Origin: Synechococcus sp. A15-28
GTDB lineage: Bacteria; Cyanobacteriota; Cyanobacteriia; PCC-6307; Cyanobiaceae
Assembly: GCF_014280175.1 (NCBI RefSeq)
Contig: NZ_CP047931.1
Coordinates: forward strand, 600,001 to 632,000
DNA: 32,000 nucleotides
Direction of reading: 5' to 3'
The notes beneath the pieces were generated by a model that saw only the letters and a list, made by a program, of their open reading frames with translations, did not search any database and was not told the origin of the DNA. Positions 7,452 to 22,176 of the stretch are shown in pieces (positions within the stretch are counted from its first letter, which is position 1; each line of letters begins with the position of its first letter). The position numbers were made by a program, and so were the translations under genes.

Positions 7452-7895
7452 ATGTCCGACGGCACCATCCTCACGATCAAGCGTCCGATCACGGTGCGTG
7501 CCGTCGTGACGCCCACCTGGAAGGAGGAGGCTGAGCGCGAGATCAGCAACGGCATCGCCAACGCCGATCAGCAGCTGGCACAGCTGGAACAGGAAGGTCA
7601 GACCGTGGTGGACCAGGTGCGGCGTCAGAGCGCCAATCCCCTTGACCCACGGGTGCAGGAGCAGGTGGCCAACATCCAGCAGCAGGTGGCTGGCAAGCGA
7701 TCAGAGCTTGAAGAGCAGAAGCGCAACCTGCTGCAGCAGCAGGCTCAGGTGCGTGAACTGGAGATGGACCAGATCGTGGAGCAGGGCCAGCTGGAAAGCA
7801 GCTGCGAGATCAAGCTCGGCGACAACCTGGTTCAGAAGATGCAGGTGGCGATCGTCGTCAAGGACGGCGTGATCCAGTCGATCGAAGAGGCCTGA
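7452..7895 (+). CDS. YlqD-like small coiled-coil protein
   Basis: 147 aa. ..IKRPITVRAVVTPTWKEEAEREI.. is followed by a Gln/Glu-rich coiled coil and ..IKLGDNLVQKMQVAIVVKDGVI.. Assigned from memory of the YlqD family pattern. Confidence 0.5.
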   Translation: MSDGTILTIKRPITVRAVVTPTWKEEAEREISNGIANADQQLAQLEQEGQTVVDQVRRQSANPLDPRVQEQVANIQQQVAGKRSELEEQKRNLLQQQAQVRELEMDQIVEQGQLESSCEIKLGDNLVQKMQVAIVVKDGVIQSIEEA

Positions 7896-7950
7896 AGCCG
7901 CTTCTCAGCTGACTCGTAAACTCCCCTGATCTGCCTTCTCGGAGACGGTT

Positions 7951-9285
7951 TTGGCAACCCACGACATCTTCATGCCTGCCCTTAGCTCCACCATGACGGA
8001 GGGCAAGATCGTGGAGTGGCTGAAGCAACCGGGCGACAAGGTCGGTCGGGGGGAATCTGTTCTGGTGGTGGAGTCGGATAAAGCCGACATGGATGTGGAG
8101 TCGTTTCAGGACGGCTACCTGGCCGCTGTTCTGATGCCCGCCGGCAGCACGGCCCCAGTCGGTGAAACGATCGGACTGATCGTGGAGACCGAGGCGGAGA
8201 TTGCTGACGCCAAGGCGAAGGCCCCCAGCACGGCGCCTGCAGCTGCATCCCCTGCTCCCACTCCTGCCCCGGCAGCTGTGCAGGCGCCGGCCCCGACACC
8301 AGCTCCGACACCAGTCCCAGCGGCACCGGCGCCTGTTGCAGCTGCTGTTCCCCCCGCAGCGCCGGTGGCGAACGGGCGCATTGTGGCCAGCCCCCGCGCC
8401 AAGAAGTTGGCCACCCAGATGGGTGTGGACCTCAGCACCGTGCGCGGCAGCGGTCCCCACGGCCGTATCCAGGCTGAGGACGTGCAACAAGCAGGCGGAC
8501 AGCCCATCTCTGTCCCCAGGGTTGCCGAGGGTGCCGCCCCCGCTCTTTCCAGCAGCGCAGTCCCAGCTGCTGCAGCTCCCAGTGCACCGGCGGGCAACAG
8601 CTTCGGGCGTCCCGGCGACACCGTTGCCTTCAACACCCTTCAGGCTGCGGTGAACCGGAACATGGAGGCGAGCCTCGCTGTTCCTTGTTTCCGAGTCGGT
8701 TACACCATCACCACCGACAAGCTGGATGCGTTCTCCAAGTTGGTGAAACCCAAGGACGTCACGATGACGGCGTTGCTGGCCAAGGCCGTTGCCGTCACCC
8801 TGGCGCGCCACCCTCAGGTGAATGCCGCCACCACCGCGGCCGGCATGGCCTACCCCGCTGATGTGAACGTGGCCATCGCTGTGGCCATGGAGGACGGCGG
8901 TCTGATCACCCCCGTGCTGCGCAATGCCGACCGCACGGATCTCTATGAGATGTCGCGTCAGTGGAAAGATCTGGTGAAGCGCTCGCGCAGCAAGCAGCTG
9001 CAGCCCGAGGAATACAGCACCGGAACCTTCACTTTGTCGAACCTGGGCATGTTCGGCGTGGATCGCTTTGACGCAATTCTTCCTCCAGGCACAGGCGCGA
9101 TCCTTGCGGTGGCGGCCTCCCGCCCAACCGTGGTTGCAGGCAAGGATGGTTCCATTGCCGTGAAACAGCAGATGCAGGTGAACCTCACCGCTGATCACCG
9201 GGTGATCTACGGCGCTGACGGCGCCGCCTTCCTCAAGGATCTGGCGGAGTTGATCGAACATCGCCCTGAAAGCCTGGCGCTCTGA
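7951..9285 (+). CDS. pdhC: Pyruvate dehydrogenase E2, dihydrolipoamide acetyltransferase
   Basis: Lipoyl domain (..[14 protein letters not shown]..), an Ala/Pro-rich linker, an E3-binding segment (..[16 protein letters not shown]..) and the catalytic ..[14 protein letters not shown].. The TTG start at 7951 is preceded by GGAG at 7941-7944. Confidence 0.9.
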
Positions 9286-9290
9286 TCGCG

Positions 9291-10388
9291 GTGCCCGATC
9301 CCAGGGATCTGCAGCTCAGCAGTTACGACTACCGGCTGCCGCAGGAGCGGATCGCCCAGGCTCCGGCCGAACCACGCCACAGCGCTCGGCTTCTGATGGT
9401 GCCCCAGGCGACCCAGGGGCTCGATGAAGCCAGGCACGGGACGGTCTGGGATCTGCTGGAGGAATTGCAGCCTGGCGATCTTCTGGTGGTGAACGACACC
9501 CGGGTGCTCAAGGCACGGTTGAAGGTGCGTCGCTCCGGTGGTGGGCTGTCGGAGCTGTTGGTGCTGGAGCCCCGCGGGGAGGGGCGTTGGCTTTGCCTGG
9601 CACGACCGGCGAAGCGCATGCGGCCCGGCGATGTGCTCAGCATCGATGGCACCTCGATCAGCCTGACGGTGCTGGATGAGGATGCCGCCAGTGGGGGGCG
9701 TTTGGTCCAGTTCCCGACGGACTGCCGAGATGCGGAGACAATCGAGAGGCTGCTGAATCAGTGGGGCGAGGTTCCACTCCCCCCTTACATCGACCGGCAC
9801 GACCCCGACGATGCTGATCGCTATCAGACTCGCTACGCCGACCGACCTGGCGCGGTTGCGGCACCAACGGCGGGTTTGCATTTCAGCGATGAACTGCTGG
9901 CCGGTCTCCAGCGCAAGGGAGTGGACCTGGCACGCATCACTCTTCACGTGGGACTCGGTACGTTCCGCCCCGTGGAGACGGAAGATCTCACCCAACTGGA
10001 ACTGCACAGCGAGTGGATCGAGGTCAGTGCGGCGGTGGTGGAGGCCATCCAGCGGTGTCCGGGCCGGGTCATTGCCGTCGGCACCACCTGTGTGCGGGCT
10101 CTGGAGGGGGCGGCTCAACAGAACGGTGGAGTTCTGCAACCGCTCACGGGGCCCGTCAACCTCGTGATTCAGCCGGGCTATCGCTTTCGGGTGGTGCAGG
10201 GTCTGGTCACTAACTTCCACTTACCGAAGAGTTCGTTGTTGCTGTTGGTAAGCGCCTTGATTGGACGGGAAAAGTTACTGCGTTTGTATGACGAAGCAAT
10301 TCAAAAGCAGTATCGATTTTTTTCTTATGGCGATGCGATGTGGATTCCACGGGAAGCGATTCTGCAATCAGCTCAGCTGATTCCATAA
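9291..10388 (+). CDS. queA: S-adenosylmethionine:tRNA ribosyltransferase-isomerase QueA
   Basis: 365 aa. ..[12 protein letters not shown].., ..TAGLHF.., ..[16 protein letters not shown].. and ..[12 protein letters not shown] are QueA signatures. The last ~180 nt are AT-rich, unlike the rest of the gene. Confidence 0.9.
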
Positions 10389-11023
10389 AATGGGTCCAAC
10401 CAGGAAATTTTTAGGGGGTCAATGTGGAGAAAGGCTGGCTGAATCATCAGTCTTTTTCCGGTAACGGCAGCTCGAATAGGTTCGCTTGTTTCCATCAATG
10501 ATTTGGCTGTGATGATGGCATGTTGGATGCAAGCGTTGGCATAGGACTGCTTCTCGTCAATGTTGATGCCATGACTGGTCAGTCCGAGCTGGATATCACG
10601 AACGAGCTCTGTTAAGGAAGCTGAGAAAACCTGATTTTTCAAATATGCAGCCTTTACTGCGCCGCAACCTTGATGACTCATCACAAGAAGGACGCTAACA
10701 TTGAGGTCAAGCACAGCATATTCAATCGAACCAGCTGACCCAAACGTGTTGGTATTTCCAGCATTGCGGATTACGAAAAGATCTCCAAAGCCTGCATCGA
10801 AGATCACTTCAACAGGAACTCTTGAATCAGAGCAAGCTAATAATGCAACTCGTGGGTGCTGCCCTCCGGCGAGTTGGTGCTCGCGTGCTTTTGTTGCGTG
10901 GGGGTGATGCGACGTGTTGCTCAAAAAGCGATCAAACCCTCGTTTGAGCTCTTCCACAACCTCGTTTGGATCAAAATACCCTTGGTTTGAGTCAACGTAA
11001 TAAGAGTCAATCATAAATTTCAC
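10373..11023 (-). CDS. Beta-class carbonic anhydrase
   Basis: 216 aa with the two zinc-ligand motifs of beta-CAs, ..[12 protein letters not shown].. (CxDxR) and ..MSHQGCGAV.. (HxxC). No N-terminal hydrophobic signal is visible. Its 3' end overlaps the queA 3' end by 16 nt, convergently. Confidence 0.85.
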
Positions 11024-11144
11024 AAGTTAACTTCCTCATTATTGCTATATAGATTAATGAAAGACGCTTTGGTCAGCAAATGCTAACTTTTTTCGGGATG
11101 TTTCTTGACTCGAGCCTCATAATTGAGGAAAGGTCACAACGTTA

Positions 11145-12557
11145 ATGCTTGCCGTTATTGTTTCACACTCGCTTTTGGCTTTGAAGGAGCCAGGTGCAGA
11201 AATTGAGGCTGCAACGGGGATGCTAGAGAAGCTCCCTTCGTTGCACTTCTCTTTTCAAGGGGCACTCCTATCACTCTCTCTGCTGTTGCTGGTCAGCATA
11301 CTGTCAGAAAAATTAGGCGTAAAGCTTGGAATACCTGGATCAATCTTCTTGTTTTTTGCTGGTCTCTTTTTTCATGTCTCAGGCTTTAGCTTTGAATCTT
11401 TTCCGTTAGAACAAGTTCATGTTGTATCGCTTTGTATATTGTTATTTTTCAGCGGGCTTTCCTTCGATCGGAAGCTTTTAAAAGAAAATAAAGTTCTATC
11501 TAATTCAATAAGTTTGGGTATTTTCGGAACCTTGCTTAGCATGGCTTTATGGCTGTTTTATTTAATCGTAGGTTTTGGTTTTTTTCAAGGTTTTTTTGGT
11601 TATCTAGAGGGTGTAAAGCAAGAGCTTGTCGAATTGCTCGTTGTAACTATTGTTTTTTCAATCGCAGTCCAGGATTGGAATTCATTTATGTTCGTATCTA
11701 AGAGAATCGTAGATTTTCGTTCAATTCTATCCAATATTTTTAGAGTTGAAACATCTATCTCAGCTTCGATCTCCGTAGCTGTTGCCGAGATTCTTGTTCT
11801 TGTTTGGCTCGCTCTGCATCCTGAGTATCAGCTCCTTAACGGATGGCAATTGTTCTCATCGATCTCCCAAGGAATATTCATTGGATCAGTATCAGGAATT
11901 GTTCTCGGTTACATTTTGATGCTGACAATTCGGTATGTCATTACGTCTAAACCTCAACTGGTTTTAGGTGCTGTTGCATTCACCCTGATCGGTTACGTAA
12001 TTTCTTTTTCAATTACTCACCAGGGTGGGTATCTCTGTGCGTTAGTGATGGGCATTGTTACCTCTTTGACCTATCGTAAAAGCTCAACTGAGGAAGAGAT
12101 AGAATTTCTAGCAGAAGAATTGGAGACACTCAATATTGCTTCTGAGGCAATCCTCTTCTTTGCGATTGGCCTTGGACTCAATGCAACTTCCTTCTTTGTT
12201 CACTTGCCAGTGGCGATCTATGTCTGGCTTGGAATCATCATCATCAGGCCAATTACAGTAAATCTCTTTTTCAAGGGCTCTCCTGCCATCGAGACTGAAG
12301 AACGTCAGCTCCTATCGATATGGAGTCCAAAAGGAGCCATTTCAATGGCCTTGGTGGTAACTGCACCAGAGCTGCTGGAGGGAACTTTTGGTATGGAGAT
12401 TGCTGAAATTTTTCCTGAAAGCGCTTCTAGCTTCTCGGCGGATGTGGTTTGCGGTGCTGTTTTGTTCTCGATGATTGTTAAATCCTTGGCGATTCCAAAA
12501 ATTCATTCCCAATTGATTCCCACTCAAAATACTATTACCACCAATCAAGAGGCTTGA
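11145..12557 (+). CDS. CPA-type (NhaP/CPA1-like) cation:proton antiporter-fold membrane protein, atypical
   Basis: 470 aa and highly hydrophobic, with about 11-13 TM segments. ..LLFFSGLSFD.. and ..WSPKGAISMALVV.. resemble the CPA1 consensus. GAGG lies at 11125-11128, upstream of the ATG. Confidence 0.6.
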   Translation: MLAVIVSHSLLALKEPGAEIEAATGMLEKLPSLHFSFQGALLSLSLLLLVSILSEKLGVKLGIPGSIFLFFAGLFFHVSGFSFESFPLEQVHVVSLCILLFFSGLSFDRKLLKENKVLSNSISLGIFGTLLSMALWLFYLIVGFGFFQGFFGYLEGVKQELVELLVVTIVFSIAVQDWNSFMFVSKRIVDFRSILSNIFRVETSISASISVAVAEILVLVWLALHPEYQLLNGWQLFSSISQGIFIGSVSGIVLGYILMLTIRYVITSKPQLVLGAVAFTLIGYVISFSITHQGGYLCALVMGIVTSLTYRKSSTEEEIEFLAEELETLNIASEAILFFAIGLGLNATSFFVHLPVAIYVWLGIIIIRPITVNLFFKGSPAIETEERQLLSIWSPKGAISMALVVTAPELLEGTFGMEIAEIFPESASSFSADVVCGAVLFSMIVKSLAIPKIHSQLIPTQNTITTNQEA

Positions 12558-12560
12558 GTT

Positions 12561-13223
12561 ATGTTGAAAAAAAAGCTGACAGATCGGTACCGGCTCTCAC
12601 GGGCAGTGTTGGTGGGCACAGTTATAACTCTTTTGTTCATGCCCATCTTGGCAACGAATGAAGCGACGACGATTGCAGTCGCATCTGCGCTTGCAGTGGA
12701 TTTTTGTATTTTTATCAAGCAATCCTGGCTCATTGACGTCAATAACACAAGGGATATCTTCCAGCAATTCGATGCGAAAGAATCATCTGTTGCAGAAAGA
12801 ACAATAGCGCTTGTATTTCTGAGTGTGGGCATATTGAGTTTCTGCATTGCGGAATTACATTCAAAGCATGATGTTCTGCCGAACTCAATTCATGTTTTTA
12901 TAAGTTTTATAGCACTATTTTTGACCTGGCTGCAGTTGCACAACGGATTTGCGCTTTACTATGCAAAAAAATACTTTGATATGAATCCGGTTCGACTTGA
13001 TGATCCTGAGGGGCAACTGGGATTTATATTTGAAGGAACAGAGCCAACATTTAGCGATTTTTTATATATTTCTTATTCGATAGGTCTTACTTATTCAATG
13101 ACTGACTGCGGCATCAAGGATTCTGCGGTTAGGCGAATTGTTATCATTCACTGCCTCTCTTCATTTCTCTACGCATCAACAGTACTGTCGATCATATTCT
13201 CATTGGCGACGCAAGTGAGTTGA
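12561..13223 (+). CDS. DUF1345-like integral membrane protein
   Basis: 220 aa. The C-terminal half ..HNGFALYYAKKYF..FSDFLYISYSIGLTYSMTDCGIKDSAVRRIVIIHCLSSFLY.. matches my recollection of the DUF1345 consensus. It starts 3 nt after the antiporter stop. Confidence 0.55.
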   Translation: MLKKKLTDRYRLSRAVLVGTVITLLFMPILATNEATTIAVASALAVDFCIFIKQSWLIDVNNTRDIFQQFDAKESSVAERTIALVFLSVGILSFCIAELHSKHDVLPNSIHVFISFIALFLTWLQLHNGFALYYAKKYFDMNPVRLDDPEGQLGFIFEGTEPTFSDFLYISYSIGLTYSMTDCGIKDSAVRRIVIIHCLSSFLYASTVLSIIFSLATQVS

Positions 13224-13358
13224 TCCGCAAAAGGGTTATCCATAACCTTTAGGGGTATGCATATGTGTGCGTTCCCTATTATTTTGTCGGGCGGCAGCGT
13301 TGGATACTTTCCAAATCCCGTATCTTCTCTACAATCAACTTGTGAACAGAATCAATCC

Positions 13359-13661
13359 ATGTTCGAACTCGAGTATCTCCTAGCTTTCGGCCTGGGTGCA
13401 GGTCTCGTTGCTCTTACCCCCGTTGTAGCTGCTGCTGCTGGAAAGGAAAGCGCTATCACCAAGACTGTTTCTGGCGCCGGACGTGGCTTGACAAAACAAG
13501 GTCTGAAAGCTGGTCTCTTTGTAGGAGGAAAGGTATCTGGACTGTTCACTGGCGTTAAGTCGGGTTTGAATGAGGTGGGTGAGAGCTTCGGCGACATTCT
13601 TGCTGAAGCGAAAGCAGACATGGCTACACCGAAAACTAAGACTTCATCACAAAAGGCTTAA
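13359..13661 (+). CDS. Small membrane-anchored glycine-zipper protein (DUF5132-like), paralog 1
   Basis: The start at the internal ATG is chosen because both paralogs then begin MFELE. It has a hydrophobic N-segment, a Lys/Gly period-4 region GLTKQGLKAGLFVGGKVSGLFTGVKSGL and an acidic tail. Confidence 0.6.
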   Translation: MFELEYLLAFGLGAGLVALTPVVAAAAGKESAITKTVSGAGRGLTKQGLKAGLFVGGKVSGLFTGVKSGLNEVGESFGDILAEAKADMATPKTKTSSQKA

Positions 13662-13664
13662 AGC

Positions 13665-14102
13665 TTGCCAATTACAGTTAAACATCGTGTATTTGGTCGT
13701 GTGAGATTTATTTGGGAGAAGAAATATACCAGTCACGAGATAAAGCTTATGGAATTATCGTTCTTGTATCATTTTCCTGAGTGTCGTTTTCGTTCTGCTT
13801 CAGGTAATACAGGTTGTGTGGTTCTTTTTGATGAAAGTAGTGATCAGCTTTTGTGCCATCAAGTGACTGATTGGATTCAGAATTTCATAGACTTTGCTGA
13901 GTGCCAAGGTCCGTTACTACCACCATCCAAAAGGGATATTCTGATCGACAAGGTTAAAGGTTGGACTGCTCAGTCCATGATTGTTATGGCTATTCTCGGA
14001 TGGATATTACCAATTCTTCCCGGTACTCCATTTTTCTTTGTGGCATGGTGGCTGGGTTGGAGGCCGTCGTCCACAAATCAGTCAGTTGTCGCCGAACCAT
14101 AA
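13665..14102 (+). CDS. Cysteine-free basic HMA-like (CoBaHMA/HMA2-like) domain protein with a C-terminal LPxxPG membrane hairpin
   Basis: TTG start 3 nt after the preceding stop. ITVKHRVFGRVRF ... ECRFRSASGNTGCVVLFDES follows the ferredoxin-like HMA pattern without CxxC. The C-terminus ..ILGWILPILPGTPFFFVAWWLGW.. resembles the DUF454/YbaN and PGPGW hairpins. Confidence 0.6.
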   Translation: MPITVKHRVFGRVRFIWEKKYTSHEIKLMELSFLYHFPECRFRSASGNTGCVVLFDESSDQLLCHQVTDWIQNFIDFAECQGPLLPPSKRDILIDKVKGWTAQSMIVMAILGWILPILPGTPFFFVAWWLGWRPSSTNQSVVAEP

Positions 14103-15170
14103 ACGCAGCCAGCTTTGAGTCATTTGTGCCCTATTGCATTGCATTGCTTCCAATTTTGCGGGCAATTCGATGCTTCTGCAGTATCCATTGTAGATCAAGT
14201 TGATGGTTGAATTGATCTGTTGAATATTCATATTATCTTTCTTCACCCCTGGTAGAAATATTTTCATGCAATGACTCTCTGTATTCCATTCTTCAATGCT
14301 TAAAGACTTATTCTTGTCTTTTAATGCGTTTGCCACGAGATCTGATTCGGGGACTGTGATCGAGCTGTTAAACGTTGTTGGTCCGTTTCGGCATTCATTT
14401 TCGATTTTGATATTGGATGTATTACTTGCGTCTTCGACAATCAGTAGATGCGGTATTGCACGGTGCATGCCTGCAACGCTTAATCGAGTTAGCAGCTGTT
14501 CCGGTTTGTAGTTTTTGCCATCAAGAATTAATGTGAAATGATGATTGCTCCGACCCGAGATCGTCTGTTGTAGGAGATGTAAACGACCTTTCCATGTTTC
14601 GTTGAGACGTAACTGTTGTGATGATGGTAAGCGTAAGCGCAGTAATTTTTCGACCGTTGAAAGTGTTTGACGCGTTGTGTCCCACCAGTTAAGCAAAGGC
14701 TCTAGCAATTGGTCGATCAAGGCTGGACCCTTTTGTGCCATTCCAAGTATTTTTAAAGCATGCAATGGCGTTGGGAGGATTACGATTAAAAGTGTACTTT
14801 TTGACGCACTGTCTAGTATTTCTGACAAGAAGATCAATCTCGTTAAGTCTTCGATCCCTGGAAGTTGCGGAAGCTCGATAGATTGTTTCCCTGCAATGTC
14901 GAGCAATTGCCACCAATCTTTGGCATGTGGATTGAGCTGTTCCCAAAGTCGAGCCAGGCTACAAATATAACTGAAATTTTCTACGATAAAATTCTTCTTG
15001 GCTATGAAATCTGATGTGTCTAAATCAATCTCTCCTGATAGATTAATCAATCTTGTGTCAGCATTTTCCTGCTGAGTATGTAGGAGCCCTTGCAACCATT
15101 GGTGTAGCGCTGAATACCGGTCTGCGCTTACCAAGAGAATCAAGGCACTGATTTCGTCTTCGAATGCCAT
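14082..15170 (-). CDS. ArsA/Get3-like protein lacking the P-loop, with an HSP20/alpha-crystallin-like C-terminal domain
   Basis: 362 aa. ..ILLVSADRYSAL.. aligns by eye to ArsA ..LLVSTDPAHSL.., and ..LIVILPTPLHALKIL.. to switch II ..DTAPTGHTLRLL.. No GKGGVGKT is present. The tail ..MKIFLPGVKKDNMNIQQINSTINLIYNGYCRSIELP.. resembles the ArsA_HSP20 domain. Confidence 0.6.
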   Translation of the reverse strand: MAFEDEISALILLVSADRYSALHQWLQGLLHTQQENADTRLINLSGEIDLDTSDFIAKKNFIVENFSYICSLARLWEQLNPHAKDWWQLLDIAGKQSIELPQLPGIEDLTRLIFLSEILDSASKSTLLIVILPTPLHALKILGMAQKGPALIDQLLEPLLNWWDTTRQTLSTVEKLLRLRLPSSQQLRLNETWKGRLHLLQQTISGRSNHHFTLILDGKNYKPEQLLTRLSVAGMHRAIPHLLIVEDASNTSNIKIENECRNGPTTFNSSITVPESDLVANALKDKNKSLSIEEWNTESHCMKIFLPGVKKDNMNIQQINSTINLIYNGYCRSIELPAKLEAMQCNRAQMTQSWLRLWFGDN

Positions 15171-15235
15171 TGTATCGGGAATGTCTTATTGGATTTCGGG
15201 ATTTTCGGGTAATATCTCCAAAATTCCATTACACC
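15171..15235. promoter_or_regulatory. Divergent promoter/operator region with tandem TTTCGGG repeats
   Basis: A 65-nt spacer lies between divergent starts. ATCGGG sits at 15174-15179, ATTTCGGG at 15193-15200, ATTTTCGGG at 15201-15209 and a TAATAT -10-like hexamer at 15210-15215. The 9-mer TTTCGGGAT recurs at 11091-11099. Confidence 0.3.
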
Positions 15236-15577
15236 ATGTTTGAACTGGAAACACTTGCTGCTTTCGGAGCAGGTGCTGCCTTGATGGCGTTAGCACCAGT
15301 TGTTCGAAAAATGGGCAATGAAGAGCTTGGAGACTCCATGGGGAAGGCAGGTCGCACGATGGCCAAAAGTGGAGTCAAGGTAGGTCTCGTTGCGGCAGAC
15401 GTTGCCGGAAAAGTTGCCAACGGTGTGACGAAGAACGTAGCTGAAGTCGCTGAATCGTTTGTGGACTTGGTTCAAGAAGCTAAGTCTGAGCGCGTTGAAC
15501 CAACAGATATCGACGCGGAACAGCCACCTACTGATGCATCCCGATCTCAGGTCATCACAGAAGTAACTGTCGAATAA
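15236..15577 (+). CDS. Small membrane-anchored glycine-zipper protein (DUF5132-like), paralog 2
   Basis: Begins MFELETLAAFGAGAALMALAPVV, parallel to paralog 1. Small-xxx-small periodicity GVKVGLVAADVAGKVANGV, a conserved ..VAESFVDLVQEAKSE.. and an acidic tail. Confidence 0.6.
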   Translation: MFELETLAAFGAGAALMALAPVVRKMGNEELGDSMGKAGRTMAKSGVKVGLVAADVAGKVANGVTKNVAEVAESFVDLVQEAKSERVEPTDIDAEQPPTDASRSQVITEVTVE

Positions 15578-15622
15578 GTCTGAATTCCATTCCAAATTTA
15601 TAATCTCTCTCCTACAAACATC

Positions 15623-18157
15623 ATGGCCACATCATTTCAGAACAGTTCAGGTTTTGGGGTCGTTGATGGAGGTGCTTCAGCACGAACATCTCGAGATCCT
15701 GCACTGCCACGATTCATTGATCGCATTCTTCATGCATCGTCTCGAAGACTTCGCTTCAGTGTGGAAACTGATTTCAAAGATCCAGATAACTTCACGCGAC
15801 ATATATCAACGCTTTCGTCAGTAGAGCAGGTTCGTTTTAATAGCTGGGCCTCTTGTTACATTGTAATTTTCAAGACTGGATATAAAATTGACGCTCTGCA
15901 ATGGCTAAGTTCACTACCACGGCGATCGCGTGAAATCCCTATTGTTCCAGAAGATTCGCTGACTGATACCGCCACTTCTACAAGCCTTCAGTCTGCTGAG
16001 GAAGAAGAGGAAAAATTTGTTCCAACGCGCATTATTCTCCCAGTTTGTTCTCTTGGTCTGGCCATAGCTGCTGGTCCTCTGGCTCTTCCTCCACTCGCCG
16101 TTGGAGTTTTTATCATTGGCGCAGCGCATCTGAGTTTCAAAAGAGCTTGGGAGGGTCTGAAAAAAGAGCGCAAAATTAATGTTGATTTTCTCGATGCCTT
16201 AGCTGTTTTGCTTCACAGCTTGGAGGGCTTTCTTTTGGGGCCAGCCATGATGATCACCATGATTGAGGGTGGTGAAGCTGTACGAGATGCTACTCAGCGT
16301 ATTGCTCACTCATCAAACACTGATCTTGTTTCCAGCCTTCAATCTGATGTGCGTCTGCTCACAGAAGATGGCGAGAAGATTGTTTCGAGTTTTGACCTTA
16401 GCCCTGGTGATCGTGTTTCGTTCCTGCCAGGAGACAAAATACCGATCGATGGTGTTATTGAGTCTGGTGAAGTTTCCCTCGATGTTGTGAAGCTGACGGG
16501 TGAATCAGTTCCGAGGATGTCGGGTCCCGGAGATGAGATTTTGGCCGGCTTTATTGTTTTGGAAGGCCACATTATTGTTACAACCTCTGCTGTTGGTCAT
16601 GACACGCGCGTCGGGCAGATCACTAAAATGATCGAGTCGGCGCCTGTTTTTGACACGCGTGTCGGAAATTTTGCCGCAAATATCGCCAATCGGTTTGTCA
16701 TCCCGACATTGGTTTTGGCGGGTGTCTCCCTGATGCTCAGTGCAGGCAATATTGCTCAGGCAGCATCTCTGCTCATGTTCGATCTTGGAACGGGGCTGCG
16801 TGTTTCAGTCCCAACTGCGATCATGGCTGCACTGACCAGAGCTGGAAGTCAAGGCCTGCTGATTCGTAGTGGACGTGCTTTGGAGCAGTTGGTTGAAGTT
16901 GATGTTGTCGTTTTTGATAAAACCGGTACGTTGACGGAAGGCCACCCGTCAATTGTTGAGTTTACTGTTTTTGACCAAAATGGAGCCCCCGATGAGTTTG
17001 TTGATGCTGATAAGTTTAAACACCTTTTGCAACTTTCCACATCACTTGAACAGGGGTTGAACCACCCGATCGCCAAGGCGATTCGTGATTTTGCTGAAGA
17101 GCAAGACGTCGACGTGATCGATTGCGAAAGCTGGGATTACAGGGTCGGTCGAGGTGTCGTCGCCACTGTTAATGGTGAGACGGTTCTTCTCGGAAACTTA
17201 AAACTTCTTCGGGAAGAGGGTGTCGAGATCTGGACAGTCGACTCCAAGCCTGAGCTGGACGTTGCTACCCCCATTTATCTTGCAGTTGATGGTCTCTTGG
17301 CCGGTATTCACTACGCCCTTGATCGTGTCAGACCAGATACGTCAGCCATGATCGCTGAATTGCATAACCGGGGTATTGAAGCTCATATGTTGACCGGTGA
17401 CATTTCCTCTGTCGCCCATGCTGTCGCTGCCGATATCGGCTTACAGCCTCATGAAGTTCATTCAGATGCCTTACCTGATCAAAAGGCAGAGTTGGTTCAA
17501 GAGTTCACTGCCGCAGGGAAGAAAGTTGTTTTTGTGGGTGATGGCATCAATGATTCAGCAGCCCTTGCCTATGCTGATGTCTCAGTATCCTTCGCCTCAG
17601 GCAGTGATTTAGCTCGCGAAACGGCTGATATTGTTCTCACGAATGATCGGGTCTCTGATCTGATTGTTGCCCAAGATTTAGCACGTCATACTTTTGCTTT
17701 GGTGAAACAGAACATTGGTATTGTCGGGGTTCCAAACTTATCGGCACTTCTGATCGGTACGTTCCTGCCAGTCAATCCCATCGCGGCTGTTTTCCTTAAC
17801 AATGGTTCCTGTCTTGTGGCAGCTGGCAATGCGATTCGGGCTCTTGGTTTCAAGGCCAAACCGCTACCTGAAATCGAAGCATCAGCTTCTACAGTGAATG
17901 TAGAAACAGTGCTCCCTGATACCGCTGCAGCTCAGGCCACGACAGAAGAAACTACCGACGAGAACGCTTCCTTACCCATCACTCATCTTGATTTGGCAGC
18001 TCTTTCACGTCGTGTTGGACTCAGTTATCAGAAGATCTCAGCCCGTCGTCGACGCAATGATTTTGCTGATTGGATATCGACTCATGATCCTGAAGGTCAT
18101 GGTTGGGAGTACAGCATTGATCTCAAAACATTCTCCATGGTTCCTGCGGTTTCATGA
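15623..18157 (+). CDS. P-type ATPase, P1B-like architecture, atypical (no CPx membrane motif, no CxxC N-domain)
   Basis: 844 aa with TGES (aa 292-295), FDKTGTLT (D432, nt 16916-16918), NHPIAKAI, MLTGD and GDGINDSAAL. The position of the P1B CPC reads LGT (nt 16784-16792). The N-terminal domain is HMA-like, with ..ILHASSRRLRFSV... Confidence 0.9.
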   Translation: MATSFQNSSGFGVVDGGASARTSRDPALPRFIDRILHASSRRLRFSVETDFKDPDNFTRHISTLSSVEQVRFNSWASCYIVIFKTGYKIDALQWLSSLPRRSREIPIVPEDSLTDTATSTSLQSAEEEEEKFVPTRIILPVCSLGLAIAAGPLALPPLAVGVFIIGAAHLSFKRAWEGLKKERKINVDFLDALAVLLHSLEGFLLGPAMMITMIEGGEAVRDATQRIAHSSNTDLVSSLQSDVRLLTEDGEKIVSSFDLSPGDRVSFLPGDKIPIDGVIESGEVSLDVVKLTGESVPRMSGPGDEILAGFIVLEGHIIVTTSAVGHDTRVGQITKMIESAPVFDTRVGNFAANIANRFVIPTLVLAGVSLMLSAGNIAQAASLLMFDLGTGLRVSVPTAIMAALTRAGSQGLLIRSGRALEQLVEVDVVVFDKTGTLTEGHPSIVEFTVFDQNGAPDEFVDADKFKHLLQLSTSLEQGLNHPIAKAIRDFAEEQDVDVIDCESWDYRVGRGVVATVNGETVLLGNLKLLREEGVEIWTVDSKPELDVATPIYLAVDGLLAGIHYALDRVRPDTSAMIAELHNRGIEAHMLTGDISSVAHAVAADIGLQPHEVHSDALPDQKAELVQEFTAAGKKVVFVGDGINDSAALAYADVSVSFASGSDLARETADIVLTNDRVSDLIVAQDLARHTFALVKQNIGIVGVPNLSALLIGTFLPVNPIAAVFLNNGSCLVAAGNAIRALGFKAKPLPEIEASASTVNVETVLPDTAAAQATTEETTDENASLPITHLDLAALSRRVGLSYQKISARRRRNDFADWISTHDPEGHGWEYSIDLKTFSMVPAVS

Positions 18158-18678
18158 CACCAACGCTTTGTTTGCGCCATCGCACCGATAGTCGCTGGAG
18201 GTTTGTGGTGACCCACGCATCCCAGTGTGATTGGGCTCGTCTGCAACGCGATCTTGTCGATGTTTTCCCCAACAGCAGCTGGTCTGTTCGAATCAATCAA
18301 AGGATTGGCTCGATTGTGGTTTGCCGCTTGGCTTCTGCACCACGCCTTCGTCAGGATCCGTTGTCATTGGTATTTGGGCGTGTTGCAAAGCAACTGAACC
18401 TTCAGGGATTTTCCGTCCCTGAAACCCCTTTAATCCCAACGGAAATCGTTGATCGGACCTCTCAGAAGCGGCTGAATGCTCTTCATTCGGTATTTCGTGG
18501 TATTGCCAATGCCGCTTCAGTGTCTTTATCCATATCTACTTTGTTATTGTCTCTGGCCCTCTTTATTATTGGTTTGCTGGGCATCCTTCTGCCATTTTCT
18601 CCAGGGATCTGGTTGTTGGTTGTAGCGACTGCTCTTTTTGACCTAGCCCTTTCTTTTCGTCGTCCTTTCGTCGTCTAA
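18154..18678 (+). CDS. Cysteine-free basic HMA-like (CoBaHMA/HMA2-like) domain protein with a C-terminal LPxxPG membrane hairpin, second copy
   Basis: ATGA start/stop overlap with the ATPase (18154-18157). LCLRHRTDSRWRFVV ... SVRINQRIGSIVVCR follows the HMA-like pattern. C-terminus ..LFIIGLLGILLPFSPGIWLLVVATALF.. Confidence 0.6.
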   Translation: MTPTLCLRHRTDSRWRFVVTHASQCDWARLQRDLVDVFPNSSWSVRINQRIGSIVVCRLASAPRLRQDPLSLVFGRVAKQLNLQGFSVPETPLIPTEIVDRTSQKRLNALHSVFRGIANAASVSLSISTLLLSLALFIIGLLGILLPFSPGIWLLVVATALFDLALSFRRPFVV

Positions 18679-18683
18679 ATCTC

Positions 18684-20780
18684 GTGACAATGCTTGCTGC
18701 GGCTTCACCATCCCCCTGGATCATCCGCAGCGAGCTCGCCGATCGAATTCGTGTCTTCCATCCAGGTTTGTCCTCCTCGCCTGGATTGCGCCAACATTGT
18801 GCGTCTTTGCTGCACCGGACGCATTGGCTGTTGAGTCACCGTATCAATGCTGTTTCTTCAACAGTAGTTATCCGATTCCACCCTCGCCAACGAGGCGATA
18901 TCACGCTCTTACTCGACCGTTGTTTCATTGACCCGGTAGCTGATTCGGGGCTTGAAAAGGCCCTTTCAGCAGAATCGCGCATCACAGACATCACGCACAG
19001 CTCCGCTTTTCAGAAGGCCCTTCGCACTGGCGCGATTTGCGGTTCAATTCTCTTCATTGATCCGATCGTCGCTGTTCCCCCGTTGGGTCTTGGCTTGGTG
19101 GCCACCATGCTGAGCTGGCCATTATTACGTGAATTATTTGAACAAGTGAACGAGCGCCTACAAGGAGAGGCTGATCCGCGACAGTTACTACCCCCTGCAT
19201 CGGTGGAGGTGGCACTGTCCGCTACGTTGATTGGATCAGGCTTGGCGCGTGAATCTCTTGTTGAAGGACTTCTAGGCAGTTCCACTTCGGCGCTTCAGTC
19301 GATGAGTGAGAACACCCAAGGATCAAGTTCGGAATTTTTTGCGTTTCTGGAGCGTCTGAAGACGTCAGTGATGCTGAGATGCATCGATATTCAAACAGAG
19401 GAAAGTACCTTGCTTCCTATTGGTGATCTTCAAGTTGGTCAACGCTATCGCTTGATGGACGATGATCATGTTTATCTGTCTTCCCGAGTTGTCCAAGGGG
19501 AGCTGGTTGTTACGAACAGCCTCAGCGATGGTTCCTCCCTGCCATTTCGTGTGGTGCCGGGTGATCACCTCGCCTTTGGGGCTTTTGTGCTGTCCGGAGA
19601 TGGTATTTGTGAAGTGGTTCAGTCGTTTTCTGAGGTCAGTCTCTTTAAGATCGAAGACACTCTTCTCGAGGAAGATGGATCAAGTGATTTCCAAAAGCGT
19701 TTGTCTTACTTGTACGATCTTCTGCTTCCTCCCGTACAGCTTGGATTTGGTGTTTGGTCGTTGCTGAATGGTCTAACAGAACGAGCCATTGGTTTGCTTT
19801 CATTTAACCCAGCTGAAGATTCTGAACGTTCCAAATTGTCTTCTTCAGAGTCAGCTTTGGTTGATATGGCACTCAATAATGTGCACATTTCAGATTCGCG
19901 CGTTTTTGAGACATTAATGGATGTTAGTCACATCATGATCAGCATCGATGCTTTGCGCCATCTTGGTACCTATTCTTGTCAACAAACCTTGTTAAATGGT
20001 GCTTCTGCACTTGATTGTGATTTACTTCAGATTCTTTGGGCTATTGTTTCTGATTTTGGTGCTGATCCATCTGTTGTCTTATGGGGAATTTTGAGTGATG
20101 TCCAAGAGAAACATCCTGCTCTTCAGTCTCTTGAAGTCAATGTCGGTGAATCGGATCAAGGTCTTTATCGCGTTGTCCTTGAAGGTCAGCCTGTCGTTTT
20201 AATTCGTTTCACGGAGAAGGATGGGGCAATTCATGCATCTTTCTCTACTGAAGAAGCGGATCTTGGTGTTATTACGATTACTTGGCGACCATCTCAAGAG
20301 TTTGAAATGATGTCGTCTCAGCTTTGTAAGCTTGGCATTTCAGTCTCTACGGTTGGTGCTCATTGTGGGCGCACTAAGGAAGCAGAAGACCGTAAGTCCA
20401 GATTGCTAGAGCTTCGTAATCAAGGATGTAAGGTGGCTTATCTTGGAGACGTTATTGACGATATTGCTGCAATGGCAGCAGCTGATATAGCTATAGGTCT
20501 TGCAGAGGATGAACTGGGCTTTATTTCTAAGACCGTTTGCGACATTGTACTTGGAGGCGATATTTTATGGTTGGCTCGTCTTTTTGTTTTGAGCCGAAAT
20601 TTTGTAGAAGCCAATCGTTTTAACACGAATTTGATTGTTGGCTCTTCTGTCCTGCTTGCAGCAGCCTCTCTTGTTGCCACCTTCTCGCCATTGCAAACGA
20701 TATTGCTATTTAACTCTGCTCCAATCATCGCTGAGATCAATACACTCAGGTCTCTCAACGGTTCAAGTTCCAGGCTATAG
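18684..20780 (+). CDS. Degenerate P-type ATPase paralog (probable pseudo-enzyme) with an N-terminal HMA-like domain
   Basis: 698 aa and collinear with P1B ATPases, but TGES becomes SDGS (aa 281-284), DKTGTLT becomes IDALRHLGT (D422, nt 19947-19949) and GDGINDxxAL becomes GDVIDDIAAM. TM segments are retained at both ends. Confidence 0.7.
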   Translation: MTMLAAASPSPWIIRSELADRIRVFHPGLSSSPGLRQHCASLLHRTHWLLSHRINAVSSTVVIRFHPRQRGDITLLLDRCFIDPVADSGLEKALSAESRITDITHSSAFQKALRTGAICGSILFIDPIVAVPPLGLGLVATMLSWPLLRELFEQVNERLQGEADPRQLLPPASVEVALSATLIGSGLARESLVEGLLGSSTSALQSMSENTQGSSSEFFAFLERLKTSVMLRCIDIQTEESTLLPIGDLQVGQRYRLMDDDHVYLSSRVVQGELVVTNSLSDGSSLPFRVVPGDHLAFGAFVLSGDGICEVVQSFSEVSLFKIEDTLLEEDGSSDFQKRLSYLYDLLLPPVQLGFGVWSLLNGLTERAIGLLSFNPAEDSERSKLSSSESALVDMALNNVHISDSRVFETLMDVSHIMISIDALRHLGTYSCQQTLLNGASALDCDLLQILWAIVSDFGADPSVVLWGILSDVQEKHPALQSLEVNVGESDQGLYRVVLEGQPVVLIRFTEKDGAIHASFSTEEADLGVITITWRPSQEFEMMSSQLCKLGISVSTVGAHCGRTKEAEDRKSRLLELRNQGCKVAYLGDVIDDIAAMAAADIAIGLAEDELGFISKTVCDIVLGGDILWLARLFVLSRNFVEANRFNTNLIVGSSVLLAAASLVATFSPLQTILLFNSAPIIAEINTLRSLNGSSSRL

Positions 20781-20815
20781 GGGTTGATTGTTAATTGATA
20801 TCTACAAATTCGAAT

Positions 20816-21421
20816 TCAGTTAACAAGTATCTTGACTCCGATGGCGATAAACAATGCCCCGCTTATGTACGACAGTCGTTTTTGACATAATCGATTTTTT
20901 AAACATTTTCCAGAGTAAACTGCCGTAATGGCTAAAAGAACGTTTGCGGCGACTGCTCCGGAGAAAATACTTTCAGCAGATATATTTGGACCTGCTGCTA
21001 AGGCAAGGAGTGCAAGTTGTGTGCGATCCCCGAATTCGGCTAAAAATGTTGTTGTGAAGGAGTTGCGTATGACGGCGTTGGCTGCCATCTTTGGTGCTGG
21101 TAATTGGAATTGGCTTGTATCGCATTCATCTTTGGCGACGTCAATCTTTGCTTCCAATCGTCTTGCTTCAATAATTGCGTTTGTGCCAAAGAGAAGGAAC
21201 GCAATACCCGAGACAATCTGAATGGTGTCGATGGATACGATCGATCTCATCCATACCCCAGCAGTGATCCAAAGTCCTGCCCCTATTGTGAGGGCTGAAA
21301 CGCTTCCAGTGAAAACCCAACGTGCTTTATGTCTTGCTGCCAGCAGAAGGGTAGTAATGAATGACTTATCTCCAACGCCTGCGATTGCGACAGTGGCGAA
21401 AGCAGTTGTGAACCCTGCCAC
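20816..21421 (-). CDS. UPF0016 / GDT1 / TMEM165 (Mnx-type) Ca2+/Mn2+:H+ exchanger family protein
   Basis: 201 aa in a two-repeat architecture. The second repeat has the canonical ExGD(K/R)(T/S) motif (..LAEFGDRTQLA..). The first repeat reads ..IAGVGDKSFIT.. GTG start. Confidence 0.75.
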   Translation of the reverse strand: MAGFTTAFATVAIAGVGDKSFITTLLLAARHKARWVFTGSVSALTIGAGLWITAGVWMRSIVSIDTIQIVSGIAFLLFGTNAIIEARRLEAKIDVAKDECDTSQFQLPAPKMAANAVIRNSFTTTFLAEFGDRTQLALLALAAGPNISAESIFSGAVAANVLLAITAVYSGKCLKNRLCQKRLSYISGALFIAIGVKILVN

Positions 21422-21499
21422 GATCTTTAAAAACTTTACAGAAACCCTATCGGAAAAGTCTCATGCCCGTTGTTTCCGTCAGTACATGTGGATATGGCT

Positions 21500-22027
21500 T
21501 CAGTGATTTGTGGGTTTCTTGATCAGCCAAGCTGTGCGCTGTCCGGCTCGATGGATCCGTTCAAACTCGAGGCCCATTCTGCGAAATCCAAGTTGACCAC
21601 TTGATAGTTGTACGGTCTGGGGCAAGCGCTTCACCTCGAGGAGCGAACAAATCTCGTGGCTAGAGAGTTCGATTTTTGTTGTTTTGAGCAAATGGAGAAG
21701 CTCAATTTTTTCACGCAGTAAACGTAGTTTGGAATACTTTCTGACGTCGTCTTGGAAAGGTTGCTCTGTATTTGTCTCGGTTGTTACTAGTTCATGATGG
21801 CTGCTGTTGGAGTCCACGGTGACGACTTCAGCTACCAGGGGGGCCTTCGGATTGTCCCGTCCGAGGTGGTCGTAGATAAGACCCGTTTCCTCCTGACGGA
21901 CCAAGGTGCGCATGCCTCGTCGAATTGGCTCAATTCCGAGTTCGCGAATGATGAGAAGCAGTTCAACGCGTGATATCCCTAGATCCGCCTCCAGGCTGCC
22001 AAGGCTGACTGCTTGCTGAGAGCTCAT
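21500..22027 (-). CDS. Hypothetical protein with an N-terminal helix-turn-helix-like segment (possible regulator)
   Basis: 175-aa ORF of intermediate G+C. ..LGSLEADLGISRVELLLIIRELGIEPI.. looks like an HTH. No family recognised. Confidence 0.45.
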   Translation of the reverse strand: MSSQQAVSLGSLEADLGISRVELLLIIRELGIEPIRRGMRTLVRQEETGLIYDHLGRDNPKAPLVAEVVTVDSNSSHHELVTTETNTEQPFQDDVRKYSKLRLLREKIELLHLLKTTKIELSSHEICSLLEVKRLPQTVQLSSGQLGFRRMGLEFERIHRAGQRTAWLIKKPTNH

Positions 22028-22093
22028 GTTGGCAATCTCTTGGATTCTCTTTTAACACGTTGGTTGCTTTGCGCTTTCTATTGTCACCGGCCC

Positions 22094-22131
22094 AAAAAAA
22101 ACGTGTGTGAAGCCCGATGGTTTCACACACG
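22094..22131 (-). terminator. Rho-independent terminator downstream of cysK
   Basis: On the minus strand the sequence reads CGTGTGTGAA-(10 nt loop)-TTCACACACG followed by T8. It lies 46 nt after the cysK stop. Confidence 0.7.
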
Positions 22132-22176
22132 CATGGATTAGAGCGTGAGCCGATGCATGGCCCCAGCGCTGTTGGT

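Follow-up and report, generated by a model that had tools for sequence, protein, structure and literature searches.

A low-GC island between queA and cysK in marine Synechococcus appears to be a calcyanin-free version of a conserved picocyanobacterial gene cluster

Results

Conservation of the cluster

We studied a window of 32,000 nucleotides from the genome of Synechococcus sp. A15-28 (contig NZ_CP047931.1, positions 600,001 to 632,000), in which an island of 12 genes with low GC content lies between queA and cysK. Judged by the content and order of its genes, this island appears to be the marine, calcyanin-free version of a conserved picocyanobacterial cluster that carries a calcyanin-like gene in sister lineages. 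The calcyanin gene, ccyA, is the single marker gene of intracellular amorphous CaCO3 (iACC) in cyanobacteria, and the mechanism of iACC formation is unknown according to the papers of the field. We consider homology between the island and the calcyanin cluster highly probable. That the island encodes an ATP-driven membrane system for handling cations and carbonate, related to the iACC machinery, is a reading that we put forward tentatively: the homology is strong, it is the function that we infer, and the function of the A15-28 island is unproven.

Ten genes of the island form a core that keeps the same order and orientation elsewhere. They encode a beta-carbonic anhydrase (CA), a DUF1345 protein, a small DUF5132-family protein (sm1), a CoBaHMA-like protein with a membrane hairpin (HP1), a Get3d-like protein, a second DUF5132-family protein (sm2), a P-type ATPase, a second CoBaHMA-like protein (HP2), a pseudo-ATPase, and a soluble protein of 175 residues (u175). 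By context look-up and from a BLAST table, we found this core in Synechococcus sp. CBW1107 (locus L001) and on the contigs L012, L013, L015, and L016, single loci being short of one to three genes. An earlier note on this stretch (hereafter, the preliminary description) had made its proposal depend on the genes occurring together elsewhere, and indeed they recur. The CA is 45% identical to orthologs occupying the same slot in L001 and L012, where HP2 also has orthologs. In L001, L012, and L013, orthologs were found for the DUF1345 protein (37 to 45% identical, often in two copies), sm1 (63 to 68%), sm2 (51 to 64%, sm2-type orthologs), and u175 (38 to 44%, again at the cluster edge). Non-marine versions of the cluster have a GC content of 57 to 67% against 60 to 64% in their surroundings and are thus host-like, whereas the A15-28 island lies 19 GC points below its host.

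In CBW1107, the gap between CA and sm1 holds a gene for a 294-aa calcyanin-like protein, in which a CoBaHMA N-terminal domain (MHxTxQRLRLR ... RSVVIEL) is followed by three glycine-zipper (GlyZip) repeats. A calcyanin-like protein of 294 to 317 aa was encoded between sm1 and either the CA or a cax gene in all ten loci found via this gene, namely, L001, L012, L013, and seven metagenome loci recovered from the alignment of the calcyanin-like proteins. Calcyanins have been defined by a C-terminal (GlyZip)3 with repeats of about 50 aa and a central Gly-Pro, a GlyZip2 similar to PdsO, and a GlyZip3 containing a Trp and a Glu (Benzerara et al., PMC8890360). In the proteins found here, the central Gly-Pro is invariant in the second repeat and present in most members in the first, GlyZip2 matches the PdsO model in 10 of 12 members, and one Glu and one Trp of the third repeat never vary. 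By these published descriptive criteria, rather than by a reference sequence, the L001-type protein looks like a calcyanin. A homolog search with the calcyanin-like protein returned close relatives only. In one locus, L013, a Na_Ca_ex (cax-type) gene adjoins the calcyanin-like gene, and such a cax neighbor has been published as a trait of ccyA surroundings (among other places, in bioRxiv 10.1101/2024.07.07.602159).

In marine Synechococcus, the whole 12-gene island is seated between queA and cysK, its divergent alleles numbering at least four (the types of A15-28, A15-24, and AG-670-B23 and that of contig L019). In an index of marine assemblies, 141 blocks contain the Get3d-like protein of one marine allele, and among the contigs listed, each one reaching the flanks has the Get3d-like gene between queA and cysK. 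A profile scan of genome contigs with the Get3d-like alignment, made with one peptide pattern, gave two loci, and the distribution among reference genomes is thus thinly sampled. Contig L017 agrees with the window at 100% of the nucleotides in its queA segment and at only about 75% of them in its island. Similarly, contig L007 is 98 to 99% identical to the window over 18.0 to 22.0 kb and 78 to 93% identical over 10.5 to 15.5 kb. The most divergent stretch among the alleles consists of HP1 and the Get3d-like gene (13.5 to 14.5 kb). The island alleles are mosaic, and the comparison suggests allelic replacement or diversifying selection.

More distant versions were found on plasmids of Gloeothece PCC 7822 and Nostoc flagelliforme, where the same ATPase subfamily occurs with DUF5132 and HMA2 genes, joined by DUF1345 and DUF1269 genes in Gloeothece (the DUF1345 protein being 31% identical to that of the island) and by a DUF454 gene in Nostoc. 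Searching the plasmids by tblastn with the calcyanin-like protein gave nothing, for which the low-complexity filter is probably responsible. As a separate observation, the plasmid of Gloeothece verrucosa PCC 7822 (L003, 18301 to 18903) encodes, near the ATPase, DUF5132, and HMA2 genes, a free-standing GlyZip protein of 200 aa (annotated as hypothetical) with a central Gly-Pro and no CoBaHMA domain; it is 36% identical to GlyZip1-2 of the CBW1107 protein and has a C-terminal run of eight His.

Within the window, all 12 open reading frames (ORFs) of the preliminary description exist, and nearly all of its family calls (CA, antiporter, DUF1345, ArsA-like protein, ATPase with degenerate paralog, and GDT1) held in Pfam and NCBIfam searches (Table 1).

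Table 1. Boundaries and genes of the queA-cysK island, in window coordinates
Feature	Position	Strand	Assignment or remark
Left boundary	10205..10388	+	Last ~60 queA codons already low-GC, island-type
Beta-carbonic anhydrase (CA), 216 aa	10373..11023	-	Pro_CA PF00484, E 2.3e-29, 103 bits
CPA-type cation/H+ antiporter, 470 aa, ~9-11 transmembrane (TM) segments	11145..12557	+	Na_H_Exchanger, E 6.9e-18
DUF1345 (BPSS1818) membrane protein, core member	12561..13223	+	PF07077, E 2.8e-29
sm1, DUF5132 family, 100 aa	13359..13661	+	DUF5132, 24.5 bits
HP1, CoBaHMA-like with C-terminal DUF454-type hairpin, 145 aa	13665..14102	+	DUF454 hairpin, E 1.3e-5
Get3d-like protein, Get3/ArsA fold with C-terminal alpha-crystallin/HSP20	14082..15170	-	ArsA_HSP20, E 2e-7
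sm2, DUF5132 family, 113 aa, sm1 paralog	15236..15577	+	43% identical to sm1
CoBaHMA-fused P1B-like ATPase, 844 aa	15623..18157	+	TIGR01525, 444.7 bits (cut-off, 346.25)
HP2, CoBaHMA-like with C-terminal membrane hairpin, 174 aa	18154..18678	+	Start overlaps ATPase stop codon
Pseudo-ATPase, 698 aa, N-terminal CoBaHMA-like domain	18684..20780	+	E1-E2_ATPase, E 6e-7
GDT1 (UPF0016) cation/H+ exchanger, 201 aa	20816..21421	-	PF01169, E 2.1e-33, 114.9 bits, two repeats
u175, soluble, 175 aa, core member	21500..22027	-	Conserved, no family match
Right boundary	22103..22140	-	Hairpin then T-run, downstream of cysK

The P-type ATPase and its dead paralog

The ATPase has the E1-E2_ATPase and Hydrolase domains, and its DKTGT, TGES, HP, TGD, and GDGIND motifs are all intact. 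In an alignment with HMA4 and the solved Cu pumps, the position of CPC is occupied by L388-G389-T390, and the otherwise universal proline of M4 is replaced by a glycine. We found no CPx-type motif (CPC, CPH, SPC, or TPC) in M4 and no soft-metal ligands in M5 and M6, where the residues are Asn and Ser and not Met, Cys, or His. The D-x-G-T-G sequence of M4 (FDLGTGLRVSVPT), which contains L388 to T390, as well as VPN in M5 and NNGS in M6, is invariant or nearly so in 124 homologs down to 38% identity, a set that takes in the Gloeothece and Nostoc ATPases (about 40% identical). This is in good agreement with the earlier call of a catalytically intact pump with atypical motifs; as to the accompanying question of whether it is a standard Cu/Zn/Co exporter with intact metal sites, both CPx and CxxC are missing. 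The putative ligand set, made up of oxygen ligands (Asp, Thr, Asn, Asn, and Ser), favors a hard cation, for instance Ca2+, and disfavors Cu, Zn, Cd, and Co. Following a variable acidic linker, the ATPase ends in a conserved C-terminal extension (17960 to 18157, about residues 780 to 844) with the pattern LS.R.G...Q.I.ARRRR.DF..WI...DP.G..W.Y.

Relatives of the ATPase number in the hundreds, with identities of 75 to 95% in metagenomes and 57 to 65% in Vulcanococcus, CBW1107, and other Cyanobium-type picocyanobacteria. Most of the best 150 among 1.84 billion cluster representatives (50% identity) have D-x-x-T-G-(I/V)-R in M4, with no proline, and most of the same 150 also carry the N-terminal CoBaHMA signature H..PGRxRxR. 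Several representatives of the family have a degenerate DKTGT motif (DKTAT, DQAA, or DCS). The motifs shared by these proteins point to a large uncharacterized family of CoBaHMA-fused P1B-like ATPases with recurrent pseudo-pump paralogs. A second sub-type, with VDYSCAIKL...LHNxxT, was also seen among the representatives.

The pseudo-ATPase of the island had been described as a degenerate paralog. This is borne out by its E1-E2_ATPase match and by the loss of TGES, DKTGT, HP, and TGD in six of six full-length orthologs (680 to 730 aa), which keep GD-x-x-D alone.

CoBaHMA domains

The motifs H..(P)GR.R.R and R.N are present in the ATPase, HP1, and HP2, and the pseudo-ATPase has the same motifs minus the His. 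Across 45 ATPases, R42, R44, R71, and N73 of the CoBaHMA N-terminal domain are invariant, and none of the CoBaHMA domains of the island has a CxxC metal site. As single sequences, they fell under the cut-off of Pfam HMA_2 (PF19991), the best being the N terminus of the pseudo-ATPase (E 0.014, 15.7 bits versus 30). Against HMA_2-positive proteins, hhalign gave probabilities of 98.7% for the ATPase N-terminal domain, 95% for the pseudo-ATPase, 93.6% for HP1, and 32% for HP2; HP2 reached 78% against the N-terminal domains of the calcyanin-like proteins and 71% against HP1. The AlphaFold2 (AF2) model of the ATPase N-terminal domain has the order beta0-beta1-alpha1-beta2-beta3-alpha2 at a pLDDT of >90 (E32-38, E42-47, H54-63, E67-73, E78-83, and H91-96), so that the extra N-terminal strand beta0, by which CoBaHMA extends the ferredoxin-like HMA core, is predicted to be present. 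This fold evidence concerns the ATPase; the domains of HP1, HP2, and the pseudo-ATPase were assigned by sequence and profile. A Foldseek search of the PDB with the same model returned several HMA domains, none of them at E <= 0.001.

HP1 shows the signature KHRVFGRVRF...CRFRS and a hydrophobic segment (residues 100 to 128) with PGTP. In public gene calls, it starts at an internal ATG and has 117 aa. Because this start cuts off the conserved strands beta0 and beta1 (KHxxxGRxRF), HP1 has to begin at the TTG codon at 13665, which lies 4 bp beyond the sm1 stop; this start restores the full CoBaHMA domain and is kept in other alleles. HP2 has the signature LRHRTDSRWRF...VRINQRIGSIVV and a hydrophobic segment at residues 117 to 169. 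The preliminary description of two small HMA-like proteins with a membrane hairpin was thus accurate, the CoBaHMA signature being accompanied by a DUF454-type hairpin in HP1 and by the hydrophobic segment in HP2.

The Get3d-like protein

The AF2 model of the Get3d-like protein (pLDDT, 79.5; pTM, 0.80) gave as best Foldseek matches AtGet3d (8ELF) and NosGet3d (8EGK/3IGF), with E values of 2e-14 to 5e-12 and TM scores of 0.56 to 0.69. In every aligned member reaching the position of GKGGVGKT, we found SADR, within L(V/A)SADRY. In a second alignment, which comprises 26 sequences, S15 and D17 do not vary. The protein was hence rightly described as a P-loop-less ArsA/Get3-like protein: a GKGGVGKT-like motif is lacking, and SADR takes its place family-wide. 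Its gene overlaps that of HP1 convergently.

Smaller proteins and transporters

The CA has the zinc-site motifs C-x-D-x-R (CSDSR) and H-x-x-C (HQGC), providing the Cys/His/Cys ligands and the Asp-Arg dyad; neither a signal peptide nor a TM segment was found in it. Every marine allele has the CPA antiporter gene, and the clusters of the non-marine loci are without it. Similarly, the GDT1 gene is confined to the marine version. The family signature is E-x-G-D-(K/R)-(T/S) in each of two repeats. The second motif of this exchanger is the canonical E-F-G-D-R-T, but in four of four marine alleles examined, the first (N terminus, 21340 to 21421) is G-(V/I/F)-G-D-K-S, where Gly replaces the usual Glu. 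This replacement suggests that the exchanger may be asymmetric or shifted in specificity.

The two proteins of about 100 aa had been taken for glycine-zipper proteins. Compared with the GlyZip of calcyanin, they reached an hhalign probability of 0.4%, and we assign them to the DUF5132 family instead. With the DUF5132 profile (PF17195), sm1 falls just under the cut-off of 25 bits, and sm2 has no Pfam match. By BLAST, both are 28 to 41% identical to proteins annotated as DUF5132 at NCBI (sm1, 32% to those of Gloeothece and Nostoc; sm2, 41% to that of Gloeothece), and they share the published TM-plus-helix layout. In sm1, this layout consists of an N-terminal Gly/Ala-rich TM helix (residues 4 to 28), a basic Gly-rich middle, and an acidic C-terminal helix; sm2 likewise has the TM helix, the basic Gly-rich middle, and the acidic helix. 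sm1 and sm2 are two orthologous subfamilies of DUF5132.

For u175, no match was obtained in Pfam even at E <= 10, nor in NCBIfam-style, PADLOC, and PHROG searches, and the former label "HTH-like" was not verified. A possible relationship between u175 and the C-terminal extension of the ATPase was considered and rejected, there being no BLAST similarity between them.

Boundaries and setting of the island

The composition of the window drops between queA and cysK as had been described, with a GC content of 45.8% inside the island (10389 to 22027) versus 64.6% in its flanks. The stretch from about 10.2 to 22.1 kb has 39 to 50% GC, and the rest of the window has about 65%. In a 100-bp profile, the GC fraction falls from 0.64 to 0.69 down to 0.42 to 0.47 at about 10200, inside the 3' end of queA, and rises again from about 22100. 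The limits proposed earlier, 10205 to 22093, are therefore accurate. queA itself is full length in its Pfam match (E 4e-119); its low-GC 3' end looks as if the island brings its own replacement for the queA terminus. The CA gene and the queA stop overlap by 16 bp on opposite strands. The right edge has an inverted repeat (CGTGTGTGAA...TTCACACACG) that precedes a T-run on the minus strand. The two probably form the native terminator of cysK and would mark the edge of the native DNA.

The host belongs to marine clade III and has a genome of 2.34 Mb; the proteins of the region run from QNI41723 (queA) through QNI41736 (cysK). Both flanks are housekeeping DNA: a glycosyltransferase, an MFS transporter, recO, an acyl-activating enzyme, pyruvate dehydrogenase (PDH) E2, and queA on the left, and cysK, two Cys/Met pyridoxal phosphate (PLP) enzymes (metB-like), psbC, psbD, and a cyclophilin on the right. 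Antisense ORFs of 300 to 470 aa lie over PDH E2, queA, and other flank genes (for instance, 7858 to 9261 and 9207 to 10220, both on the minus strand); these are artifacts of high GC content and not genes. Scans for promoters and terminators gave no excess over shuffled sequence.

We found no tRNA at the island, no integrase or recombinase among its 12 gene products in Pfam, and no att-like repeat at its boundaries, the two edges having no common k-mer of 11 or more bases. Furthermore, the Get3d-like protein had no relative in viral contigs, the candidate proteins of the island had no PADLOC match, and the sole PHROG match was that of the pseudo-ATPase to a generic ATPase family. We therefore regard the island as a recombining flexible island and not as a recognizable mobile element. 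Horizontal exchange is indicated only by composition and allelic mosaicism.

Discussion

Proposed function

P1B-type pumps export from the cytoplasm. In the mechanism that we propose, the intact ATPase would pump a hard cation from the cytoplasm into a membrane-bounded space. The ion would most likely be Ca2+ or another alkaline-earth cation, with Mn2+ or Mg2+ possible, and would be bound by D387 and T390 (M4), N704 (M5), and N725, N726, and S728 (M6). The dead paralog would probably be a partner or regulator of the pump. Four Arg-faced CoBaHMA domains, those of the pump, the pseudo-pump, HP1, and HP2, may attach the assembly to an anionic surface, for example one of anionic lipids, the binding of which by CoBaHMA domains is a published hypothesis. 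HP1 and HP2 might have their C-terminal hairpin anchors held or inserted by the P-loop-less Get3d-like protein, with no hydrolysis of ATP, and the two DUF5132 proteins could coat or scaffold the membrane. The beta-CA would link CO2/HCO3- chemistry and proton balance to the process. In an alpha-cyanobacterium, one expects a CA in the cytosol to short-circuit the carbon-concentrating mechanism (CCM), which suggests that the enzyme of the island is kept confined or under regulation. In the marine version, H+ counter-flux would come from the CPA antiporter and GDT1, which stand where other versions have calcyanin (plus a cax-type exchanger in L013). Where calcyanin is present, the product would plausibly be iACC; for the marine island without calcyanin, the buffering or sequestering of cations and alkalinity is more likely than classical iACC granules.

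Several observations weigh against such a reading. The calcyanin-like proteins were named by descriptive criteria, without comparison to a reference calcyanin, and because the ten loci bearing ccyA come from related lineages (45 to 99% identity), they are not independent observations. In the 32-kb window, tblastn with six calcyanin-like proteins found no calcyanin-like ORF, giving chance matches in the GC-rich flanks only. Of the five non-marine loci, L015 and L016 are likewise without the gene; the core therefore has a function for which calcyanin is dispensable and which need not be mineralization. We infer the ion specificity of the ATPase from ligand chemistry only, and both GDT1 and the CPA antiporter are compatible with ordinary Mn2+, Ca2+, or pH homeostasis. 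The earlier proposal of an ion-sequestration or mineralization system consequently stands in part: the genes are co-conserved and orthologous clusters house a calcyanin-like gene, but the window has no calcyanin-like gene and its small proteins are not homologous to the glycine zippers of calcyanin. Since the window has no calcyanin-like gene and calcyanin is the sole validated marker of iACC, mineralization by the island is conjecture, and we regard the formation of a mineral by the A15-28 island as quite unlikely. A broader version, in which the ten-gene core is the toolkit that builds and loads a cyanobacterial ion-storage organelle, bounded by a membrane or a monolayer, with calcyanin as an optional mineral-controlling add-on, seems to us unlikely as well, if a little less so. 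If it were true, open-ocean Synechococcus would lock away carbonate and Ca, Sr, Ba, or Mn in an unrecognized body.

A somewhat unlikely alternative is that of an ordinary island for ion and pH homeostasis, in which surplus divalent cations leave through the action of the pump, GDT1, and the CPA antiporter, which also set the pH of the cytoplasm or thylakoid lumen in certain ocean niches, with no compartment or mineral, and the CoBaHMA, DUF5132, and Get3d-like proteins are mere regulators or assembly factors of the pump. UPF0016 proteins serve Mn2+ homeostasis in cyanobacteria, GDT1 and the Na_H_Exchanger are confidently assigned, calcyanin is missing from the window, L015, and L016, and the island does act as a niche-linked flexible island with several circulating alleles. 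This alternative, however, leaves unexplained why six accessory anchored or chaperone-like genes and a dead pump are kept in a fixed order at 30 to 64% identity and why calcyanin and cax are inserted into exactly this cluster. Moreover, an unconfined cytosolic beta-CA would be expected to dissipate the bicarbonate pool of the CCM.

The published hypothesis on anionic lipids, the replacement of the M4 proline by glycine, and the lipid kinase and SDR genes adjoining the Gloeothece version would fit a role in membrane remodeling or protein targeting, where the ATPase moves a lipid or other non-metal substrate, the Get3d-like protein targets the hairpins, and the transporters are passengers. We consider this very unlikely, as the ATPase scores 445 bits with TIGR01525 versus 14.8 bits with the phospholipid-flippase model of NCBIfam, its core is nearest to P1B cation pumps, and the cluster is repeatedly accompanied by CA, cax, GDT1, and CPA genes. 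The public label "heavy metal translocating P-type ATPase" implies yet another reading, a horizontally acquired island for resistance to Cu, Zn, Cd, or Co. While the TIGR01525 score, the best solved relatives (CopA, HMA4, and ZntA), and the low GC content, which suggests horizontal acquisition, agree with it, the lack of CPx, SPC, TPC, CPH, and CxxC and the Asn and Ser residues in M5 and M6, invariant over 124 homologs, do not, and no metal-sensing regulator or metallochaperone was found among the 12 gene products; we disfavor it as highly improbable. Finally, the ten-gene synteny between marine and non-marine versions refutes a chance collection of cargo in a hypervariable island, or a remnant of a defense system or prophage. 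Such an origin is extremely improbable even though the composition is atypical and the site is recombination-prone with several alleles, because the cluster is host-like in GC content in the non-marine loci and the searches described above gave no defense match, no viral relative of the Get3d-like protein, a single generic ATPase match in PHROG, and no tRNA, integrase, or repeat.

Novelty and significance

Taking the cation- and carbonate-handling system as our preferred reading, the presence of a calcyanin-like gene inside the cluster in related picocyanobacteria makes the island a pointer to candidate iACC machinery, with a concrete list of candidates consisting of the pump, its dead paralog, the Get3d-like protein, the CoBaHMA hairpin proteins, and the CA. 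Furthermore, a common calcyanin-free marine island raises the question of the role of the core machine without calcyanin and of any effect on the marine cycling of Ca, Sr, Ba, Mn, and alkalinity. The island also exposes a large, apparently uncharacterized family of P1B-like ATPases without the otherwise near-universal M4 proline.

The system had been called undescribed, which is only partly true because a preprint already reports part of the module next to ccyA in Microcystis: DUF5132, CoBaHMA-DUF454, and cax beside ccyA are known from its text (bioRxiv 10.1101/2024.07.07.602159), and the CoBaHMA family has been published. In the searchable literature, we found neither the ten-gene cluster as a unit, nor the ATPase/pseudo-ATPase pair with its non-canonical site, nor a P-loop-less Get3d-like member, nor a calcyanin embedded in a picocyanobacterial cluster, nor an abundant calcyanin-free marine island.

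Comparison with known systems

In Microcystis aeruginosa PCC 7806, the gene order is DUF5132, CoBaHMA-DUF454, CoBaHMA, DUF5132, ccyA, and cax, and the DUF5132 gene at -1, the DUF454 gene at -3, and cax are co-expressed with ccyA, according to Bruley et al. (bioRxiv 10.1101/2024.07.07.602159). As far as the text of that preprint goes, the island resembles this neighborhood in its two DUF5132 genes, its CoBaHMA-DUF454 hairpin gene, its further CoBaHMA gene, and a cation/H+ exchanger gene alongside, and it differs in that the window has no ccyA and the exchanger is GDT1, not CAX. The ATPase/pseudo-ATPase pair, the Get3d-like protein, the beta-CA, DUF1345, u175, the CPA antiporter, and GDT1 are extras of the island that the same text does not mention. 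The ccyA region on the megaplasmid of Fischerella sp. NIES-4106 combines the same ingredients (Benzerara et al. 2022, PMC8890360); its ATPases were absent among the 25 matches listed in a plasmid search with the island ATPase and may be of a different subfamily. For the marine strain RS9917, both the formation of iACC and a calcyanin of the CoBaHMA type have been described (PMC8890360). Clade VIII and subcluster 5.2 have one or two copies of a specific P-type ATPase in common.

Get3d is the photosynthesis-associated branch of Get3, with an alpha-crystallin domain; the family is cyanobacterial and plastid-borne, keeps its P-loop, and binds tail-anchored proteins (Barlow et al. 2023, PMC10248533). 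The island protein has the same combination of a Get3/ArsA fold and an alpha-crystallin domain, and Get3d structures (8ELF; All4481, 8EGK/3IGF) are its top structural matches. Unlike the published members, which retain a deviant Walker A P-loop, it has SADR at this site, and its gene lies inside a cluster, in convergent overlap with that of a hairpin-anchored protein.

CopA, ZntA, and HMA4 are the best solved relatives of the island ATPase by sequence, and these P1B pumps have TGES, DKTGT, HP, TGD, GDGxND, and, after M4, PT-A-(I/V)-M in common with it. In M4, however, the island ATPase has L-G-T within a proline-free D-x-G-T-G and not CPC. The M6 motif is MxxSS in CopA-type and HEGxT in ZntA-type pumps, whereas that of the island ATPase is NNGS. 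The CoBaHMA N-terminal domain without CxxC, the conserved C-terminal extension of 100 aa, and the pairing of its gene with that of a dead paralog set it further apart from the P1B pumps.

The non-marine picocyanobacterial cluster has ten orthologs in the same order and orientation. Between CA and sm1, it carries the calcyanin-like gene, accompanied in L013 by Na_Ca_ex, and its GC content is that of its host. In the same gap, the marine island instead has the CPA antiporter and DUF1345 genes; it adds GDT1, and its GC content is 19 points lower than that of its host.

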